64,000 nucleotides of DNA from Alphaproteobacteria bacterium (lineage in GTDB: Bacteria > Pseudomonadota > Alphaproteobacteria > RF32 > CAG-239): the NCBI GenBank assembly GCA_017445475.1, contig JAFSUB010000001.1:14834-78833 (forward strand). Reading direction: 5' to 3'. The position numbers were made by a program, and so were the translations under genes. The notes beneath the pieces are model-generated. The model was not told the DNA's origin and did no database searches. It worked only from the letters and a program-made list of their open reading frames with translations. This document shows, in pieces, positions 42,367-57,569 of this stretch (the first letter of the stretch is position 1; each line of letters opens with the position of its first letter).

Positions 42367-44172
42367 CTAATTGTTATCTTCCAAATCAAGCTTAATATGA
42401 AGCTCTTTTAATTGCTCATCACTGACTGTGTTCGGTGCCTGCATCAAGAGATCTTGTGCCTTTCCGTTTAAGGGGAAGATAATCACATCGCGGATAATCG
42501 GCTCGTCTAAAAGCAACATAACCGCGCGGTCAATCCCCGGAGCACAGCCTGCGTGCGGCGGTGCGCCGTAATGAAACGCGTTGATCATGCCGCCGAATTT
42601 GTTGTCAACCACATCGTGTCCGTAGCCCGCAATTTCAAAGGCTTTATACATGATTTCCGGCTTGTGGTTGCGCACCGCGCCCGAGGCGAGTTCTGCGCCG
42701 TTGCAAACCAAATCATATTGATAAGCCAAAATCTCAAGCGGATTCTTATTCAAAAGTGCATCCATACCGCCTTGCGGCATTGAAAACGGATTGTGCGAAA
42801 ATTCAACGGCGCCCGTTTCTTCATTTTGCTCATAAAACGGAAAATCAACAATCCAGCAGAACCTGAAAGCATCTTTTTCAAACAAGTCAAGTTCTCCTCC
42901 GAGTTTGTTTCTGACAACACCCGCAAATTTGCTGACGGAATCTTCTTTGCCGGCCATAAACAAAACGGCGTCTCCGTCTTTCATTTCAAAGAATTTTTTA
43001 ATTTCATCAAGCTTTTGCGCATCAAAAAAGCGCGACAAACCTTTTGCACCGCTTGCGCCAAAAGCAATATATGCCATGCCGCCCATATTTTGCTCTTTTG
43101 CGAAAGCGTCAAACTTATCAAAAAATGAGCGCGGCTTTTCGGCAGCATTCGGCGCAACAATTGCGCGCACCTTTTGGCCCTCTTGAACCATCCGGTCATA
43201 TAAGCCAAAGCCGGAATTGCCGAACAAAGGTGTTGCATCAACAATAACAAGCGGATTTCTTAAATCGGGCTTATCTGTGCCGTATTTGAGCATAGACTCC
43301 TTAAAGGGTATGCGAATAAACGGCGGCTCGGAAACTTTTCTTCCGTTTGAAAATTCCTTGAAAAGTGTGCCCATCGTGTGTTCCAAAACGGCAAACACAT
43401 CTTCTTGGGTGGCAAAGCTCATCTCCAAATCAAGCTGATAAAATTCGCCGGGGCTTCGGTCGGCACGCGGATCTTCGTCTCTGAAACAAGGCGCAATTTG
43501 AAAATAGCGGTCAAAGCCCGAAACCATCAACAGCTGCTTAAATTGTTGCGGCGCTTGAGGCAGGGCATAAAATTTTCCGGGATTAAGGCGAGAGGGAACC
43601 AAAAAGTCGCGTGCACCTTCGGGTGATGAGGCCGTTAAAATCGGCGTTTGATATTCGGTAAAACCTTGGGCGAGCATCAACTCTCTGATGCGATGTATCA
43701 CCTTTGAGCGCAAAACCATATTGGAATGAATGCGCTCTTTTCTTAAGTCCAGAAAACGATATTTAAGGCGCAGTTCTTCAGGAGAATCATCTTCAAAAGC
43801 AACCTGAAACGGCAACACATCCGCCTCGGAATGCACCACCAGTTTTTTTGCCTTAATTTCAATTTCGCCGGTGGGCATATTTTTATTGACGCTTTGGCGC
43901 ACAATGACTTCGCCTTCAACGCCGATGACGCTTTCAACACGCAAATTTTGAATTTTTTCAAACAAATCGGAAGAAGAATCGAACACGCATTGGGTTATGC
44001 CGTAATGGTCGCGCAAATCAACAAAACAAAGGTTGCCGAGGTTGCGCTTTCGATGAATCCAGCCGGCAATCAAAACCGTTTTGCCGACATCTTCGCGGCA
44101 AAGCTGGCCGCATGTGTGTGTCCGATATTCGTTCATTTTTTTCCTCATAAAAGATGGTTGTTTTTCACTCAT
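42367..44172 (-). CDS. aspS: aspartyl-tRNA synthetase
   Basis: 601 aa; N-terminal OB, class II motifs with canonical arginines (FRDE...R, GLDR), bacterial GAD insertion domain. Confidence 0.95.
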
Positions 44173-51497: not shown

Positions 51498-52583
51498 ATG
51501 TTTAAGACGCCGTTTTTTAAGAAGAAAAAACCCTTTTTAAAAAAAGATTTGAAACAAGCGCCCAATTATGCGGCGATTGATTTGGGCACAAATTCGTGCC
51601 GTTTGGTGATTGCGACGCCGACACCGACCTCGTTTCACGTTGTTGAAACGTTTTCTAAAATTACACGATTGGGCGAGGGCATCATCAAAGATAACGAACT
51701 TTCCAAAGCGGCCATGCGGCGCACAGTGAACACCTTAAAAGTTTGCAAAAGCGTGATGGACGAATATGCGCCAATTACCCGTTCAAGGTTTGTGGCAACG
51801 GCAGCCTGCCGAAGGGCAAAAAACTGTGCCGAGTTTTTGGCAATGGTTCAAAAAGAGGCGGGCATTAAGCTTGAAATTATTTCGCCGCAGGAAGAAGCAA
51901 GACTTGCCGTTGTCGGGTGTGTGCCGCTTCTAAACCGCAACATTAAGCGTGCGCTTATTTTTGACATCGGCGGCGGTTCAACGGAAATTTCACTTGCGCG
52001 TGTAACCGAAGAAGGCAAAACATTTATTGAAGGGTACGTTTCGCTTCCCTACGGCGTTGTTACAATCTCGGAAGCTTTTCCGAAGCAGGAAATGACCAAT
52101 TTGGCCTATAACACCATTATTGAACGCACACACGGCATTTTGGCGGAGTTTGATGAAAAATACGGTGTGTATGAAGGCATTAAAAATCAAGAAATACAGG
52201 TTATCGGAACATCGGGAACCGTAACGGTTTTGGGCGCGGTTCATTTGGGGCTTGTGCGCTATAACCGTTCGGCGGTTGACGGCCTTTCAATTTCGGGTGC
52301 AGATGTTGAAAACGTGATTAACAAAATTAAAAATATGGGTGATGCCGGCAGGCGTAAACATCGGTGTATCGGTCCGATGAAGGCTGATTTAACCATTTCC
52401 GGTTGTGCCATTATCGAAGCACTGTTGACAATTTTCCCCATCTCGGAAATTACAATTGCAGACCGAGGAATCCGCGAGGGAATTTTGCTTGATATGATTC
52501 ACAATGAAAAGCGTGACAGAAAACATAAAAAGAAAAATTTTAAATCACATCCGCATCACAAAAGGAGAGCAAATGAAGGATAA
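51498..52583 (+). CDS. Ppx/GppA-family phosphatase (paralog 1, actin-like domains only)
   Basis: AIDLGTNSCRLVIA, DIGGGSTE, EALL motifs; no HD domain; basic C-terminal tail. Confidence 0.75.
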   Translation: MFKTPFFKKKKPFLKKDLKQAPNYAAIDLGTNSCRLVIATPTPTSFHVVETFSKITRLGEGIIKDNELSKAAMRRTVNTLKVCKSVMDEYAPITRSRFVATAACRRAKNCAEFLAMVQKEAGIKLEIISPQEEARLAVVGCVPLLNRNIKRALIFDIGGGSTEISLARVTEEGKTFIEGYVSLPYGVVTISEAFPKQEMTNLAYNTIIERTHGILAEFDEKYGVYEGIKNQEIQVIGTSGTVTVLGAVHLGLVRYNRSAVDGLSISGADVENVINKIKNMGDAGRRKHRCIGPMKADLTISGCAIIEALLTIFPISEITIADRGIREGILLDMIHNEKRDRKHKKKNFKSHPHHKRRANEG

Positions 52584-53541
52584 AGTTCTTGCGAGCATTG
52601 ATTTGGGTTCCAATTCTTGTCGCCTCAGAATTGCAACGCTTGAGGGCAATCTCCTTTATAAAGATTCGAAGCCGACCAAATTGGGCGAGGGATTGTTTCA
52701 AACCAAAAAATTGAGTGCGGATTCTATGAACCGTGCACTTGCGGTTTTTCAAGATTTTGCGGAAAAGATGAAGGCACACCATGTTGAAGCCTATCGGGCA
52801 ATTGCAACGGCGGCCTGTCGAATGGCGCAAAACGGGAAGATGTTTGCAAACGAAGTTGAAAAGCAAACAGGTATTAAAATTGAAATTATCGACACAAAAG
52901 AGGAAGCAAGGCTCAACTTAAAAGGTGCTTTGTTCAACGCTCCGAAAGAAAGCGAATATGTTGTGGTTTATGATTTAGGCGGCGCCTCAACCGAAATAAC
53001 GCTTGCAAAAAACAACGCTTCGTGCGAAATTTTGCACACCATCTCAATTCCGCTCGGTGCGCGCAACGCTTCAGAAGGCTATGATTTGCGGGAGTTTCAG
53101 CTTAAAAAAGCTCAAAAGCTTTCAGACGATATTAAAGGTTATGTTCAAGCTTTTATTGAAGATTCACACTTAAAAGATTATCAGGATAAATGTTGCCTGA
53201 TTGCAACCTCAAGCACGCCCTTGCGCCTTTGCTCAATGGTTCATCACGACGGTTTTTATGCGCGCGAAAAAAATGATGGTAAAATCTTAAAAACAACCGA
53301 TGTAGACAAGGCCGTTCAAACCTGCTGTGAAATGAGCCTTGCCGAACGCGCAAATTCGCCGTATGTCGGAAGCGACAGAGCTTCTGTTTTTGTGGCAGCC
53401 TGTGTGATTTTTAAAAGCATTTACGACACGCTCGGTTTTAGAGAGCTGACCGTATCATTCAAGGGGGCGCAATACGCCATGTTAGAGGAGTTAAGAAATG
53501 CCGAAACTGACAAAGTCCGCAAAGCTTGTTCGCGGTCATAA
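52573..53541 (+). CDS. Ppx/GppA-family phosphatase (paralog 2)
   Basis: SIDLGSNSCRLRIA, DLGGASTE; ATG at 52573 with AAAGGAGAG RBS overlaps the end of paralog 1. Confidence 0.75.
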   Translation: MKDKVLASIDLGSNSCRLRIATLEGNLLYKDSKPTKLGEGLFQTKKLSADSMNRALAVFQDFAEKMKAHHVEAYRAIATAACRMAQNGKMFANEVEKQTGIKIEIIDTKEEARLNLKGALFNAPKESEYVVVYDLGGASTEITLAKNNASCEILHTISIPLGARNASEGYDLREFQLKKAQKLSDDIKGYVQAFIEDSHLKDYQDKCCLIATSSTPLRLCSMVHHDGFYAREKNDGKILKTTDVDKAVQTCCEMSLAERANSPYVGSDRASVFVAACVIFKSIYDTLGFRELTVSFKGAQYAMLEELRNAETDKVRKACSRS

Positions 53542-54203: not shown

Positions 54204-54437
54204 TTATTTTTGTTTTAGCTCGTCAACAAGCCTTATTTCGATGGATTTATGGAAATACTTCAAGGCCTCTTCAAACTTTTTCCAGCCGACGCGATCTAAG
54301 CCGAGCTCAATTCTTTCATAGGTGATGGGTTTTATTTTAAGCGCCTTGCAGCAGGCGGCGGTGTATGTGTTGTTTCTTTGGCGCTCTTCAAAAAGAATAC
54401 GGCCGAGCATTTTTTTAATTTGTTTTTGAATCGTCAT
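54204..54437 (-). CDS. small XRE-like HTH protein (cassette copy B)
   Basis: 77 aa, paralog of 37026..37271 (MTIQKQIKKMLGRILFEER...); C-terminus diverges at the junction with the core gene. Confidence 0.6.
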   Translation of the reverse strand: MTIQKQIKKMLGRILFEERQRNNTYTAACCKALKIKPITYERIELGLDRVGWKKFEEALKYFHKSIEIRLVDELKQK

Positions 54438-54660: not shown

Positions 54661-54673
54661 AAAAAAAATTGAA

Positions 54674-54711
54674 GATGCCTTGAAGTTTTTGAGCGCGCTC
54701 AAAAAATAGGC
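54674..54711. repeat. dispersed repeat (left flank of cargo B)
   Basis: GATGCCTTGAAGTTTT (16/16 with 57478..57493), palindrome GAGCGCGCTC, then GGCATGACGGGTT; second partial copy GCCATGACGGGTTGTG at 54758..54773. Confidence 0.45.
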
Positions 54712-54806
54712 ATGACGGGTTTTATAGATGTTTTGAATTTTTCGCTTAAGCGAAAAACAGCCATGACGGGTTGTGCTGTTTTTTCTCCATTCCGAACGAA
54801 AACAAA

Positions 54807-56009
54807 TTAAATATTTCTTTCTTTTTTCTGTTCGGTAATATTTATTTGTGATGATACTTGTTTTTGAGAAGTTTTATCGGGAAACGTATAGTTTATCCCA
54901 AGTGGATTGCTGGCCAACAACATACTGTCTGAATTGACGTATCTTGATATGAAAGCATCAATACCTAATCCGAAACTCATAGATTTAGGCAGTCCCCACT
55001 TCATATAAGACATTTCGTTTACATATTCCAAATTATTGTTGTTCTTCTGTTCTTGTAAAGCTTCCTTAACTTTACTATAATCTGTTTCATCACAATAACC
55101 ATGAGCCGTTAATCGACCATTTATATACCATTTAATTTCTGTTTTTAATCCGTTTTCATCAGGTGCGACAAGCGGATTTGAAACCGGCGCGTTAATCAAT
55201 ATTGTATTTTTAAACTCCGGAATTCTTCTTTGATATTGAATGCCTAATTCTGCCAAATTATTATAGTCAACTATATCAGGCGTCCCTTTCTCCGGTGTTT
55301 CAAAACCGTATTTCTTGCACAAAGTACTCATAATTCTACTTACTTTTGTCATGAATCTTAAAAGCTGAGGTTTTGTATAATCTAAAGAAACGAATTCCAA
55401 AGTGCACATTTCCGGAACATGGTTTGCGTCGGAATTTTTGTTGTAAAATACACTCCCGATTGTATAAACGGATTTTAATAAAATCGCGGCTGTTTGTTTA
55501 AGTTGATTTTCCGGAGTAATGCGCAAATAAACAGGCTCTTTATCAAACTGTCCCTTGGTTTGAAACGGAGGTATGGCAGAGCCGGTTCTTTCTCTTTCCA
55601 AGACTTTACAGGGTGTATTTTCAAATCCGTCTTTATCTAAAAGCTCGGAAATTTTCTGTATCAGTTCTTGCTTAAGCCGATAAACATCAATTTGCTTGCC
55701 TGCATTGCGGGCATTGCTTTGGGCATAGCGCTCACAGCCTTTAGAATTATTCGGTAAATTTTTAAACTCGTCCCATGTTTGACACGGACTTACCCACAAA
55801 ATTCTCTCAATTTTTAATACATTTTCTCCACTTTGGTTTTTTATGAATTTTCCGGTAGCGGCAAAACAATCTCCTTTTTTTAAAGCTTTCTTGTGATATA
55901 GATTTTTATCAAAAACAATTTGTTCCTTTTTACCATCACTTGTATATGTTTCGGCAAAAATCACGGATTTATGCTTCCTTACATTCAATATTCGAAAGAT
56001 TTTTTTCAT
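54807..56009 (-). CDS. class II (LysRS/AsnRS-subclass IIb-like) aminoacyl-tRNA synthetase paralog with N-terminal OB fold; motif 2/3 arginines apparently substituted
   Basis: Aligns to LysRS blocks: FENTPCKVLERERTGSAIPPF, VFYNKNSDANHVPEMCTLEF versus FRNEGISVRHNPEFTMMEL (R to Y, E to K), SFGLGIDAF versus GLGIGIDR (R to A); AT-rich relative to neighbours. Confidence 0.6.
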   Translation of the reverse strand: MKKIFRILNVRKHKSVIFAETYTSDGKKEQIVFDKNLYHKKALKKGDCFAATGKFIKNQSGENVLKIERILWVSPCQTWDEFKNLPNNSKGCERYAQSNARNAGKQIDVYRLKQELIQKISELLDKDGFENTPCKVLERERTGSAIPPFQTKGQFDKEPVYLRITPENQLKQTAAILLKSVYTIGSVFYNKNSDANHVPEMCTLEFVSLDYTKPQLLRFMTKVSRIMSTLCKKYGFETPEKGTPDIVDYNNLAELGIQYQRRIPEFKNTILINAPVSNPLVAPDENGLKTEIKWYINGRLTAHGYCDETDYSKVKEALQEQKNNNNLEYVNEMSYMKWGLPKSMSFGLGIDAFISRYVNSDSMLLASNPLGINYTFPDKTSQKQVSSQINITEQKKERNI

Positions 56010-56023
56010 GATTTTTTACCTTT

Positions 56024-56731
56024 TTAGGGAATTTGTTTAACCTTACGGTCATCTCTGCAAGTCATGATTTTTATCGAACCATCTTGAAAAACCAGTGCAG
56101 TGCAATCATCCATACTCCATCCTTGTATGTTTTTTTGTTTCAGTTTGTCATTTATCCTTTGTTTCTCATCTTCAGTCAGCCAGTCGTAATGTGGGACACC
56201 AAATCCTTTAATAAATCCCAAACCTCTAACCAAATCGAGTTGCTCAATATTTTCTATATCATCCATATTATCGTAATATTCAAACCAGCAAATGGCGCCT
56301 GCAGAGATACCGGCTAAAACAATTCCCTTTTGGTAGGCTTCGTATAAGATATCGCCAAGTTTATATTTTTGCCAAATGTTCAGCATGGTTGTTGTATCTC
56401 CGCCACCGACATAAATAATATCACTTGAAAATATTTTGTTTCTAATTTCTTGTATGGAAATTGATTCCTCTACCAAATTTAAAGGTTCAACGGAATGGCA
56501 CCCCAAACGTCCCTTAAAATGATTCTCTACAACTTCCAGATAACTTTTTTTATCACCTGAAGCCGTGCCGACAAAAAGCATTTTAGGATGCTTTTTTCCC
56601 GTTGCATCAACAATAAAACGATCAATCAGAGTTGTTTCCACGTCTGTTTGCACAGAAGTACCGTCCGGCAAAACCTTTATTCTTCCTATTTCCCCTCCAC
56701 CGACAGCTATAATCATTTTTTTCATTTTCAT
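56024..56731 (-). CDS. S51-family peptidase (peptidase E / cyanophycinase-like)
   Basis: IYVGGGDTTTML, nucleophile block LAGISAGAICW, His in VPHYDW; 15-bp gap to the aaRS-like gene. Confidence 0.7.
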   Translation of the reverse strand: MKMKKMIIAVGGGEIGRIKVLPDGTSVQTDVETTLIDRFIVDATGKKHPKMLFVGTASGDKKSYLEVVENHFKGRLGCHSVEPLNLVEESISIQEIRNKIFSSDIIYVGGGDTTTMLNIWQKYKLGDILYEAYQKGIVLAGISAGAICWFEYYDNMDDIENIEQLDLVRGLGFIKGFGVPHYDWLTEDEKQRINDKLKQKNIQGWSMDDCTALVFQDGSIKIMTCRDDRKVKQIP

Positions 56732-56749
56732 TGCCTTTAATTATTGTTT

Positions 56750-57343
56750 TTACCTGTTTTTTGTTTTTCGATAATTGTATAAATCTTCAAAAATTTTTGT
56801 ATTTTGTCTTTCACGCTTTTTTAAATATTCTTTCACTTGTTCAGCCCGCTCTGCAACAGAGCCTGCCACCAAATTATATTTTATTTTATGATGATTCATA
56901 AATTCTATTATTTGTTCATGTAAAATATCTTTGGTTCCCTCATCTCCACGCATCATACTGGTATCAAATGCAATATGCGGATCACACACAAAAACAACAT
57001 CTTGTGTTTTGTAAAATTCTAACGCTCTTTCTTTGAGCTCGGGAAATTCTCTGCCAAACGAATATTTATTTCCCAAATAAAAGATTAACGGTCCGCTGTC
57101 GATAAATAAATATTTTTGTGCTTTTTTTTCCAAAATTTCGATGTCATAATTTTGCAAATCGGCTGCCTCAATAAAAACATCGTTCGTAATTTGTGCAATG
57201 CCTATGCCACGTTTGGTCATAACATCACGCATACGTTCTGGAGCGTGAGGCTCACCATACATGTCGGCACAATAGCGACACAGAGTAGATTTACCCGTGC
57301 TTGACGCTCCTGAAAAATTAATTTTTAAGATTTTATTACTCAT
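56750..57343 (-). CDS. P-loop NTPase / small-molecule-kinase-like protein (NadR-kinase/AAA_28-like)
   Basis: Walker A INFSGASSTGKSTL near N-terminus, Walker-B-like LFIDSG; 197 aa; 18-bp gap to the peptidase gene. Confidence 0.55.
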   Translation of the reverse strand: MSNKILKINFSGASSTGKSTLCRYCADMYGEPHAPERMRDVMTKRGIGIAQITNDVFIEAADLQNYDIEILEKKAQKYLFIDSGPLIFYLGNKYSFGREFPELKERALEFYKTQDVVFVCDPHIAFDTSMMRGDEGTKDILHEQIIEFMNHHKIKYNLVAGSVAERAEQVKEYLKKRERQNTKIFEDLYNYRKTKNR

Positions 57344-57461
57344 TTTTTGTTTGTCCGTAACATTGCCGTAATGATATCCTAAACAAATATTTTTGTCAAC
57401 ATATATTTACAAATCGATTAAATAATTATGGAATAATTTCTTAGATTTTGGTTTGTTATAT

Positions 57462-57493
57462 TGGCATGACGAGTGGTGGATGCCTTGAAGTTT
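57462..57493. repeat. dispersed repeat (right flank of cargo B)
   Basis: GGCATGACGAGTGG followed by GATGCCTTGAAGTTTT, matching the left-flank elements in rearranged order. Confidence 0.45.
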
Positions 57494-57569
57494 TCAAATA
57501 ATGCTTGATATTTGCTTTAAAATGTATCATATTTGCTCACAAATCAGTGATGAATTGGAAAAAAGGAAA

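Follow-up and report, generated by a model that had tools for sequence, protein, structure and literature searches.

A three-gene operon joining a LysRS-like paralog to an S51-family hydrolase and a NadR-type kinase in an alphaproteobacterium, and its possible role in lysyl-nucleotide chemistry

What could a protein resembling lysyl-tRNA synthetase (LysRS) be doing in one operon with a peptidase-family hydrolase and a small P-loop kinase? The question is raised by positions 54807-57343 of a 64,000-nt stretch of contig JAFSUB010000001.1 from an Alphaproteobacteria bacterium (RF32; CAG-239), and this whole stretch is called the window below. The segment consists of three co-directional open reading frames (ORFs) on the minus strand, transcribed in the order kinase, S51 hydrolase, LysRS-like protein. 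They encode a NadR-type P-loop kinase of 197 aa (57343..56750), an S51-family serine hydrolase of 235 aa (56731..56024) and a truncated class IIb LysRS paralog of 400 aa with an OB fold and a shortened catalytic core (56009..54807), separated by gaps of 18 nt (kinase/S51) and 14 nt (S51/LysRS-like). An earlier note on this DNA, made from the letters alone, had described a three-gene operon here; the co-directional ORFs are indeed present, but the smaller gap is 14 nt rather than 15 nt, the strand is minus and the note's first gene is the last one transcribed. Its family assignments agree with Pfam, which gave tRNA-synt_2 for the LysRS-like protein (E 2e-11, with a weak OB-fold match), Peptidase_S51 (PF03575) for the hydrolase (E 1e-38, score 133.6 against a gathering threshold of 23.9) and AAA_28 (PF13521) for the kinase (E 7e-17, 62.7 against 27). 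A candidate sigma-70-type promoter, TTGACA-17-TATCAT, lies 5' of the kinase gene (57399..57371, minus strand) and, as a consensus match, agrees at 11 of 12 positions; a TTGACA element is also found no more than 120 nt 5' of the kinase gene in four of six other alphaproteobacterial loci (L001, L002, L005 and L010; compared loci carry L numbers), the flanks of which are otherwise unrelated. The three genes form an operon with its own predicted promoter. Tentatively, by analogy with known systems, we favor the possibility that the operon is a self-contained mobile module acting on a lysine-nucleoside or lysine-nucleotide conjugate, such as a lysyl-adenylate-like inhibitor of aminoacyl-tRNA synthetases (aaRSs), in which the S51 protein would serve as a safety hydrolase.

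The LysRS-like protein was compared with curated models of class II synthetases. Its best NCBIfam models are those of LysRS, with 82.4 bits against a cutoff of 427.6 for TIGR00499 and 78 against 468 for NF001756. The EpmA models NF006828 and TIGR00462 reach 43.1 against 264 and 38.3 against 286.9 (E 3e-11 and 1e-9), asnS reaches 25.8 against 342.6 and the aspS models about 17 against about 360, so that the equivalog scores lie 5-20 times under the cutoffs. At 400 aa the protein is shorter than LysRS (about 500 aa) and has no insertion between motifs 2 and 3. In phmmer searches of PDB sequences it matched only class II LysRS, with FRNE aligned to FYNK and GLGIDR to GLGIDA, just the replacements (FRNE to FYNK, GIDR to GIDA) that had been read by eye before. 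The AlphaFold2 (AF2) model has a mean confidence (pLDDT) of 74, with 81-89 in the OB strands and less than 50 in the motif-2 loop, and Foldseek returned only full-length class II LysRS structures for it (E 1e-19, 17-19% identity). A structure search and an inspection of the motif 2/3 arginines, both suggested previously, therefore gave a class II LysRS fold in which the canonical arginines are absent on alignment.

A canonical LysS/LysU identity was rejected, for the protein is under the equivalog cutoffs, is short and has the motif-2 Arg, the stacking Phe and the motif-3 Arg replaced. AsnA, AsnRS and AspRS were rejected by scores far under their cutoffs. EpmA (PoxA/GenX) is the closest parallel in kind, a truncated class II LysRS paralog that does not charge tRNA and beta-lysylates elongation factor P. 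EpmA keeps the motif-2/3 arginines and adenylates beta-lysine. It differs in having no OB anticodon domain, whereas the window paralog has an OB fold and replaced arginines; besides the score under cutoff, neither an aminomutase of the KamA-type EpmB kind nor efp was found in any locus with gene or ORF annotation, and this identity was rejected as well. It is extremely unlikely that the gene is an ordinary housekeeping enzyme (a divergent normal LysRS, EpmA/PoxA, AsnA or AsnRS) standing by chance beside unrelated genes. Such an enzyme would fit the best matches, which are LysRS and EpmA models and LysRS structures, but not the scores under cutoff, the absent motif-2/3 arginines or an OB fold unlike EpmA and AsnA; nor would it fit the extreme rarity of the family, the foreign composition, the presence of the trio in every examined locus lacking the arginines, and the class I LysRS carried by related alphaproteobacterial metagenome-assembled genomes (MAGs). 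On these comparisons the protein is a non-canonical class IIb LysRS-like paralog.

To place its residues, about 50 family members were aligned with true LysRS by MAFFT, and the columns were mapped to the human LysRS-tRNA structure (PMC11643047). Two parts of LysRS are retained. The first is the OB-fold anticodon-binding domain (residues 1-75; 55785..56009, minus strand) with R11, F18 and Q30, plus R6 and K14. R11, F18 and Q30 are conserved in most of about 45 full-length paralogs and in true LysRS, as is a basic RKHK patch, and they are the counterparts in the alignment of human R136, F144 and Q155, which stack on or bind U35/U36 of the anticodon (PMC11643047). The second is a predicted acidic pocket of the lysine type, formed by Glu167 in ITPENQLKQ (55494-55520, minus strand), Glu205 and the family signature HGYCDE (H303, Y305, D307 and E308; 55086..55103, minus strand). 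E167, E205 and D307 align with the positions of the LysRS glutamates for the alpha-amino and epsilon-amino groups, and the pocket residues are invariant in the window's clade and nearly invariant family-wide (HGYxDE). In the alignment the anticodon triad and the lysine pocket are thus intact. The MAFFT strand register is ambiguous at E291 versus E293, so no claim is made on the counterparts of the Mg2+-binding Glu residues of LysU.

The ATP site is different. In motif 2 (VFYNK; 55437..55451, minus strand; translation checked) the invariant Arg has become Tyr189 and the Glu of FRNE has become Lys191; in motif 3 (GLGIDAFISR; 54942..54971, minus strand; translation checked) the invariant Arg has become Ala352, and a new Arg356 follows one helical turn later. 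In human numbering, R323, F335 and R553 correspond to Y189, M201 and A352 in the window. Throughout the window's clade the motif-2 Arg is replaced by Tyr or Phe, the FRNE Glu by Lys, the stacking Phe by Met, Val, Thr or Ile, and the motif-3 Arg by Ala, Thr, Gln or Leu. Tyr/Phe189 is paired with Lys191 (i+2, on the same strand face) in the whole Arg-less clade except for the member P0023, which has Val, while Arg189 is kept in the Arg-retaining paralogs and in true LysRS. Likewise, Arg356 (i+4) is found in all 22 alphaproteobacterial, Bacilli and P0023 sequences without Arg352, and the position is never Arg in Arg-retaining paralogs or LysRS. Because both arginines and the aromatic stacker are still present in most of the distant members (364-406 aa), the Arg-less state is judged to be derived, and because K191 and R356 were gained only where the arginines were lost, the nucleotide/phosphate site looks remodelled and functional. 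The suggestion of a non-canonical or pseudo-enzyme can be kept as far as a non-canonical paralog is meant; pseudo-enzyme is too strong a word in view of the gained Lys191 and Arg356 and the intact anticodon triad and lysine pocket.

The second protein carries the hallmarks of an S51 serine hydrolase. Its nucleophile elbow GISAGA (Ser143; 56294..56311, minus strand, translation checked) aligns with GTSAGA of the cyanophycinase 7UQV, and the catalytic His181 was placed in VPHYD (56183-56197, minus strand) by alignment of the S51 partners. Ser143 and His181 are invariant among the S51 partners of five clades; between clades these partners are only about 20% identical, yet the GxSAG Ser and the His are kept. 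For the third residue of the triad, Asp208 or Asp209 is a tentative candidate. Among the alphaproteobacterial loci the S51 gene is the most conserved of the trio (63-75% identity). In one of them, L009 from a sheep-colon MAG, the trio S51 gene at 5270-5981 is split over two frames (5270-5470 and 5397-5981), which means a frameshift or pseudogene, or else an assembly error. The gene had been placed in the PepE/cyanophycinase family; it is a Peptidase_S51 member, but neither a cyanophycinase nor PepE by curated cutoffs. Cyanophycinase (CphB/CphE) was rejected at 48.1 against 126.6 for TIGR02069 and by the His context, VPHYD without a DQH...RxRxxR-like pocket by reading. Dipeptidase PepE was rejected at 22.9 against 156 for NF003642, the likeness being at the level of fold and family. 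A profile of the partner S51 proteins matched best Listeria Lmo0363 and PepE-type structures (3L4E, 1e-20; 6A4T, 1e-11).

These data bear on a reading in nutrient salvage or its regulation, in which the LysRS-like protein would be a subunit on the peptidase-kinase pair that senses lysine or Lys/Arg peptides, and the nutrient would be, for instance, beta-Asp-Lys/Arg from cyanophycin or glycated lysine. The model for such a subunit is HisZ, a HisRS paralog that is the regulatory subunit of ATP-phosphoribosyltransferase, without aminoacylation and without a tRNA-binding role. HisZ is alike in being an aaRS paralog working with other enzymes; it belongs to another aaRS subclass, and in the family here the covarying basic residues suggest a nucleotide site that is remodelled but works. 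A lysine pocket without a canonical ATP site is what ligand-sensing pseudo-aaRSs have, the hosts are low-GC gut, rumen and oral bacteria, host-associated and known only from metagenomes, the alphaproteobacterial S51 proteins are nearest to cyanophycinases by sequence, and one kinase partner of the APH type weakly matches fructosamine-kinase (E 0.037). We nevertheless find this reading quite improbable. CphB has a DQH/Arg-rich substrate pocket around the catalytic His, and by our reading the window protein does not have that pocket; its score, at 48 vs 127 bits, is also too low for a cyanophycinase. Linked genes for a transporter, an isoaspartyl dipeptidase or a deglycase are missing, and salvage would leave unexplained the anticodon residues, the radical-SAM, NUDIX and HAD genes of the relatives, the linkage to class I LysRS and the thymidylate kinase (Tmk) fusion, which are described below.

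The kinase shows a Walker A/P-loop GASSTGKST (57284..57310), a Walker B LFIDSG (57092-57109) and a lid RGDEGTKD (56927-56950), all on the minus strand with the translation checked and all invariant across trio kinases and NadR-type relatives. Its nearest relatives outside the trio are a NadR-like protein with nicotinamide mononucleotide (NMN) adenylyltransferase (NMNAT) and ribosylnicotinamide kinase (RNK) domains, 37% identical, and, at 31%, a protein that its source annotates as 'nicotinamide riboside kinase', and it aligns with RNK domains end to end. It differs from NadR in that the NMNAT and helix-turn-helix domains are absent, the score against the NadR model TIGR01526 is 36.7 versus 341, and it forms a subfamily of its own. 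This subfamily was recovered only as 11 clusters at 54% identity or more, and all members with examined context sit in trio operons. By these features the trio kinase is not NadR and is probably of a small-molecule nucleoside-kinase type. In four alphaproteobacterial lineages (L001 3378-4349, L002 6355-7272, L008 and L010) the trio kinase has a conserved C-terminal extension of about 110 aa without a Pfam match, which is absent from the 197-aa kinase of the window.

How regularly do the three genes occur together? The LysRS-like family is extremely rare: homologs form 22 clusters among 5.8 billion proteins, and a profile search of 1.8 billion representatives gave 31 LysRS-like clusters at E<=1e-30 before true LysRS begins. 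An S51 gene partners the paralog in six clades and a kinase (AAA_28, or APH) in five of those six. All 8 alphaproteobacterial loci examined (7 MAG species in the genome scan) have AAA_28, S51 and LysRS-like genes in the same order and in non-syntenic contexts. In other clades an APH (aminoglycoside phosphotransferase) kinase stands in: the Bacilli clade (L003/L004/L012) has the LysRS-like gene with a convergent S51-APH pair, L023 has the order LysRS-like-APH-S51, and L022 has APH-LysRS-like-S51. For the Arg-retaining loci L017-19, a truncated RelA/SpoT homolog is followed by LysRS-like-S51-APH and a RIO/Bud32-like kinase. Wherever triad clades have an APH kinase, these kinases are orthologs of one another, and they match the APH(3') family model at E 1e-14, under its cutoff. 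The trio is present in every examined locus of the Arg-less clades, and its genes overlap frequently, which suggests translational coupling. The kinase has been replaced non-orthologously and the S51 protein has diverged while keeping its Ser and His, indicating that selection acts on the combination of activities. The co-occurrence check proposed by the earlier note therefore came out positive, with 8/8 alphaproteobacterial loci plus distant Firmicute clades having APH in place of AAA_28. Besides, throughout the Bacilli clade (L003 7281-7865 on the minus strand, L004, L012 2589-3137 on the minus strand, and L016) a divergent gene 5' of the LysRS-like one codes for a conserved protein of about 190 aa that matches no family and is perhaps a fourth component in this clade. 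In two alphaproteobacterial lineages the trio is followed, after a few genes, by one of the YpsA/SLOG family (L002 10576-11112, minus strand; L010 7674-8198, plus strand), and in L010 a resolvase directly follows the trio.

In the window the operon is set apart by composition, as had been noticed at first reading. Its GC content is 0.351 compared with 0.422 ± 0.019 in all other 2.5-kb windows of the 64 kb, none of which is as low, and GC at third codon positions (GC3) is 0.28-0.32 in the operon genes versus 0.43-0.49 in the neighboring genes; the related alphaproteobacterial MAGs that bear the trio have 32-37% GC. Repeats reported on both sides are present, though short. The operon is flanked by two exact copies of a 16-mer, GATGCCTTGAAGTTTT, at 54674 and 57479, and by a 12-mer, GGCATGACGGGT, which with at most one mismatch is found at 54709, 54760 and 57463 (0.11 copies expected); neither motif recurs elsewhere in the window. 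The left cluster (16-mer A, 12-mer B, A', B'; 54674..54771, plus strand) overlaps a hairpin/terminator-like sequence directly 3' of the LysRS-like stop codon, the right repeat (B then A; 57460..57494, plus strand) lies between the operon promoter and lepB, and together they enclose exactly the three genes plus promoter. Around the trio, the alphaproteobacterial loci differ: iron-type alcohol dehydrogenase (Fe-ADH) and cupin genes, rubrerythrin, ankyrin and resolvase, DHFR-ThyA, or class I LysRS. Neither blastn nor tblastx found flanking DNA, a leader peptide or a small ORF conserved among these loci, and a test for synteny of the insertion site showed that the related loci share none of the other genes of the window. 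The operon looks horizontally acquired. On this comparison, the mobile unit is the three genes.

A viral origin was rejected, since pattern scans of IMG/VR with the close family, P0024 (an Arg-retaining member) and a distant sub-alignment gave no match. The plasmid collection matched only true lysS-like sequences. In tblastn searches of GenBank phages the sole match was a weak one, 26% identity over 62% of P0024, at 398763-399467 of LR756504.1, an unannotated 636-kb 'uncultured phage' record. An Rfam riboswitch/T-box scan of the operon region and 16 loci, made for a clue to the amino acid, found none. A dedicated or suppressor tRNA as in a pyrrolysine-like system was rejected, ARAGORN giving only ordinary tRNAs on 21 loci, with tRNA(Lys) genes only in L021 (two).

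The Arg-retaining relatives stand in larger clusters. Several of these clades combine the LysRS-like gene with a B12-radical-SAM and a second radical-SAM gene (L013, L021, L024, L026 and L028), and some clusters add HAD, NUDIX, methyltransferase, Ser/Thr-type kinase and NIF3 genes. The linked radical-SAM enzymes were considered as lysine 2,3-aminomutase (EpmB-like) and rejected, as they are of the B12-binding methyltransferase or AprD4 type. The candidate immunity gene varies: S51 in L013/14, an AAC(6')/RimI-like GNAT in L021, and a class I LysRS fused to tRNA_bind in L021 and L028-30. Class I LysRS adjoins the paralog in three clades, namely L021, L028-30 and the alphaproteobacterial loci L001/6/7, and the fused enzymes of L021 and L028-30 are 49% identical despite a 27-point difference in host GC. 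For example, L021 contains at 7811-10033 (minus strand) tRNA-Lys(TTT), tRNA-Lys(CTT) and then a 679-aa class I LysRS-tRNA_bind beside the GNAT/LysRS-like/radical-SAM cluster, with AbiEii and ParD nearby. In L028-L030 (human oral metagenomes, GC 0.60; the protein is recorded in 31 index blocks, with 24 contigs read) class I LysRS-tRNA_bind is divergent from a fused 800-aa double radical-SAM gene and the LysRS-like paralog, and the locus also carries a relaxase and an IstB-like gene.

Several neighbors concern nucleotides. The paralog is C-terminally fused to an apparently genuine thymidylate kinase (FITFEGIDGAGKT...) in L001 (5067-6911), L006, L007 and L008, giving 614 aa; no tmk was found within the 64-kb window. 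DHFR-ThyA is immediately upstream in L002. In L015 (322-5833, GC 0.44) the Arg-retaining P0024 ends a phage-like block of nucleotide metabolism (DNMK, NT5C, glutaredoxin and NrdD), and the contig ends after this gene. NUDIX genes are close by in several loci. We count the Tmk fusion, DHFR-ThyA and DNMK/NT5C/NrdD as sequence-level hints of a link to nucleotide metabolism in favor of the lysine-nucleotide module.

Other neighbors point in another direction. Truncated RelA/SpoT homologs of about 475 aa, with HD, TGS and, in some, synthetase domains and without the C-terminal regulatory half, lie directly 5' of the LysRS-like gene in two distant clades (L013 6567-7991; L014 6561-7985; L018 3193-4626; L017 1-1011). 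They could fit a toxin or defence module directed at tRNA(Lys), in which the LysRS-like protein would capture (Lys-)tRNA(Lys), the S51 protein strip the lysyl ester and the kinase phosphorylate the 3' end, so that translation stops. RelA/SpoT-homolog toxins that pyrophosphorylate the CCA end of tRNA are the analogy. This module would agree with conserved anticodon residues and lysine pocket next to an ATP site that is not conserved, with the TGS-bearing homologs upstream in the two clades (L013/14 and L017/18), with the extra class I LysRS and two tRNA(Lys) genes beside the L021 cluster, and with defence or mobile neighbors, that is AbiEii and ParD (L021), PemK and a recombinase (L003), HsdM (L001) and the resolvase (L010). 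It is nonetheless unlikely in our view. PADLOC-DB v2 had no match for the three trio proteins at E<=0.01, and PHROGs had none for S51 or the LysRS-like protein; for the kinase the only matches there were to one family of NMN adenylyltransferases of the NadR type and, weakly, to one of thymidylate kinases. The kinases are of the small-molecule type (31-37% identity to nicotinamide-riboside kinases, or APH(3')-like), no conserved antitoxin or sensor candidate was found, a near-consensus promoter appears to drive the operon among housekeeping genes, and apart from the one weak phage-record match the family is absent from the viral, phage and plasmid collections. The proposal of a tRNA-sensing abortive-infection or defence role thus found no support, as the PADLOC search was empty and the neighborhoods are mixed rather than defence islands.

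For the favored module on a lysine-nucleoside or -nucleotide conjugate, the following steps may be envisaged. The NadR-type kinase would phosphorylate a nucleoside to the nucleoside monophosphate, judging from the nicotinamide-riboside kinases, to which it is 31-37% identical; its position is occupied in other clades by a small-molecule kinase resembling APH(3'). The LysRS paralog would bind tRNA(Lys) through the OB fold and lysine through the acidic pocket, without canonical ATP binding, and would couple to the nucleoside or nucleotide a lysyl group that is already activated, in the form of Lys-tRNA(Lys) or of Lys-AMP made by the host LysRS, as modelled on albomycin AbmF with the adenylate of AbmK. 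The S51 Ser-His hydrolase would then cleave the aminoacyl-nucleotide bond for self-immunity or turnover, as MccG does with processed microcin C (McC). We infer each of these steps together with the identity of the nucleoside and the purpose, which may be that of an antibiotic, an addiction system or an antimetabolite. An active enzyme with a changed nucleotide site fits better than a dead protein, given that the ATP contacts have gone and K191/R356 have been gained with the anticodon triad and lysine pocket still in place. Besides, the constant LysRS-like core with variable tailoring and immunity genes resembles the organisation in producers of aaRS-targeting Trojan-horse compounds (PMC8323819).

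Two known systems supply the logic. MccG, an S51 enzyme, hydrolyses the aminoacyl-nucleotide bond of processed McC, and its standalone homologs are protective (PMC9239234). Like the hydrolase of the trio, it is an S51 Ser-His enzyme whose gene is associated with class IIb aaRS chemistry. It differs in its substrate, an aspartamidyl-nucleotide that inhibits AspRS and that the ThiF-like MccB makes out of a ribosomal peptide; near the trio the window has no mccA, mccB or mccC. In the albomycin pathway, AbmF joins an amino-thionucleoside to seryl-adenylate that it receives from AbmK, an insensitive SerRS, and does not itself activate serine, although one review calls it an aminoacyl-tRNA synthetase; the cluster has a nucleoside kinase, AbmG, resembling deoxycytidine kinase and two radical-SAM enzymes acting on the sugar, and AbmF homologs are encoded beside SerRS genes (PMC9032320, PMC8323819, PMC12691670). 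The likeness, drawn by description and not by sequence, lies in an aaRS-like enzyme that would use a donor activated by another synthetase (proposed here, with class I LysRS beside the paralog in three clades), in the P-loop nucleoside kinase and in the radical-SAM partners, which occur only in the trio's relatives. The differences are serine and SerRS there versus a LysRS-like protein here, a window trio without radical-SAM, pyridoxal-phosphate (PLP) or siderophore genes, and the OB anticodon domain kept here. Measured against an albomycin-like cluster, the window has the paralog and the kinase, the cognate class I LysRS and radical SAM are found only in the relatives, and no exporter or vehicle was found.

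The same precedents also serve the strongest rival, an immunity-only cassette against an exogenous aminoacyl-nucleoside or -nucleotide antibiotic of gut neighbors, in which the S51 protein would hydrolyse the compound, the kinase phosphorylate it and the LysRS-like protein act as an insensitive back-up or as a binder or decoy. Resistance precedents exist for all three gene types, including protection by standalone MccG homologs (PMC9239234) and immunity conferred by the insensitive aaRS copies AbmK and AgnB2 (PMC8323819), and the partner kinase of other clades is APH(3')-like, albeit under the model's cutoff (E 1e-14). Selection for insensitivity to an adenylate mimic would lead to a remodelled adenylate pocket, the anticodon residues kept in the OB fold would suit a back-up that charges tRNA, and the trio, without exporter or tailoring genes, is mobile, AT-rich and autonomous. 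We regard this cassette as rather doubtful all the same. Independent resistance genes need no strict linkage or translational coupling over such divergence, and a competent LysRS is unlikely without the motif-2/3 arginines and the LysRS insertion at 17-19% identity. In Arg-retaining clades, moreover, the paralog is constant while the candidate immunity genes vary, which speaks for a biosynthetic role of the paralog. Among the three roles proposed before, the one concerned with aminoacyl-adenylate mimics gains support through the MccG precedent (PMC9239234), and the defence role does not.

Several observations weigh against the lysine-conjugate module itself. The trio has no conserved companion that could be an exporter, a precursor peptide or an uptake vehicle, which leaves an antibiotic role without a delivery route, and the radical-SAM tailoring genes of the most biosynthesis-like clusters are absent from the window trio. 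The motif-2 Arg is regarded as essential for class II chemistry, and compensation by K191/R356 is deduced from covariation, with the motif-2 loop poorly modelled (pLDDT <50). To our knowledge, characterised S51 substrates all have aspartate at P1, whereas the pocket of the paralog looks lysine-like. The alphaproteobacterial S51 proteins are nearer in sequence to cyanophycinases than to PepE/MccG-type enzymes, and the window S51 is itself nearer by sequence to cyanophycinase and Lmo0363. The association with genes of deoxynucleoside triphosphate (dNTP) metabolism is statistically marginal (3 of about 17 contexts). Finally, what the comparison shows is gene content, conservation of the triad, residue patterns and horizontal acquisition, and the function is proposed by analogy.

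A more specific form of the idea is that the paralog would be an ATP-independent lysyl transferase. It would dock Lys-tRNA(Lys) charged by the unrelated class I LysRS of the host and reverse the transfer step onto a non-adenine nucleoside monophosphate made by the kinase, giving a lysyl-nucleotide antimetabolite with the S51 protein as safety valve. The Tmk fusion and the ThyA/DHFR linkage hint at a thymidine-type nucleotide. The trio would then be the minimal form of unrecognised mobile LysRS-centred clusters, the larger of which, in gut and oral bacteria, would have radical-SAM tailoring and their own class I LysRS and tRNA(Lys) as immunity. Taken jointly, this is an improbable proposal.

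The remaining features of the window concern the neighborhood of the operon, which is of housekeeping character on both sides. One flank contains aspS (42367-44172, minus strand), ccrM, two tandem ppx/gppA paralogs and rlmE, and the other lepB, rnc and era. The genuine aspS, which had been located about 11 kb away, is 10.6 kb from the operon. The tandem Ppx/GppA-family (exopolyphosphatase) paralogs of 361 and 345 aa (51498-52583 and 52504-53541, plus strand) lie directly 5' of rlmE and, as listed, share about 80 nt. A 77-aa ORF (54204-54437, minus strand) situated between the operon and rlmE is of host-like composition (GC 0.40, GC3 0.49); by eye it appears to be a small helix-turn-helix protein, Pfam gave only sub-threshold TPR matches, and it was not found beside the trio in any other locus compared. 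A 29-nt inverted repeat (54253-54281 / 54662-54690) has one arm inside this ORF, and the upstream region of the ORF holds the left repeat cluster.

In conclusion, the parts of this operon come from known families and the logic proposed for it has precedents (AbmF/AbmK/AbmG, MccG, EpmA and HisZ), while the family and its linkage are undescribed in the searchable literature. As the earlier note supposed of the combination, no description was found there of it, of LysRS-like paralogs with S51 or kinase partners, or of aaRS-like defence systems. Paralogs of aaRSs with unexpected chemistry are familiar, such as EpmA, AsnA, HisZ, AbmF and the Atl ligases. The present family is unusual in that the tRNA-reading and lysine-binding parts of LysRS are kept, the nucleotide site appears rebuilt with two 'invariant' arginines moved, and, in more than one phylum, the gene is firmly linked with those of an S51 hydrolase and a small-molecule kinase. 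The relocation of the arginines, the retained tRNA-reading domain, the cross-phylum triad and the mobile class I LysRS and tRNA(Lys) companions should interest the aaRS and natural-product fields. If the immunity-only explanation is true, an undiscovered LysRS-targeting antibiotic would be circulating in these communities, and if the ATP-independent transfer is true, there would be a new tRNA-dependent route to aminoacyl-nucleotide toxins. If the lysine-conjugate pathway is the true one, gut, rumen and oral microbiomes would harbor a new class of natural products or antimetabolites of the lysyl-nucleotide type, along with the genes for immunity to them; the existence of mobile class I LysRS genes could then be explained by a function in resistance, and the family would show that nature has a form of class II aaRS catalysis that does without the canonical motif-2/3 arginines.

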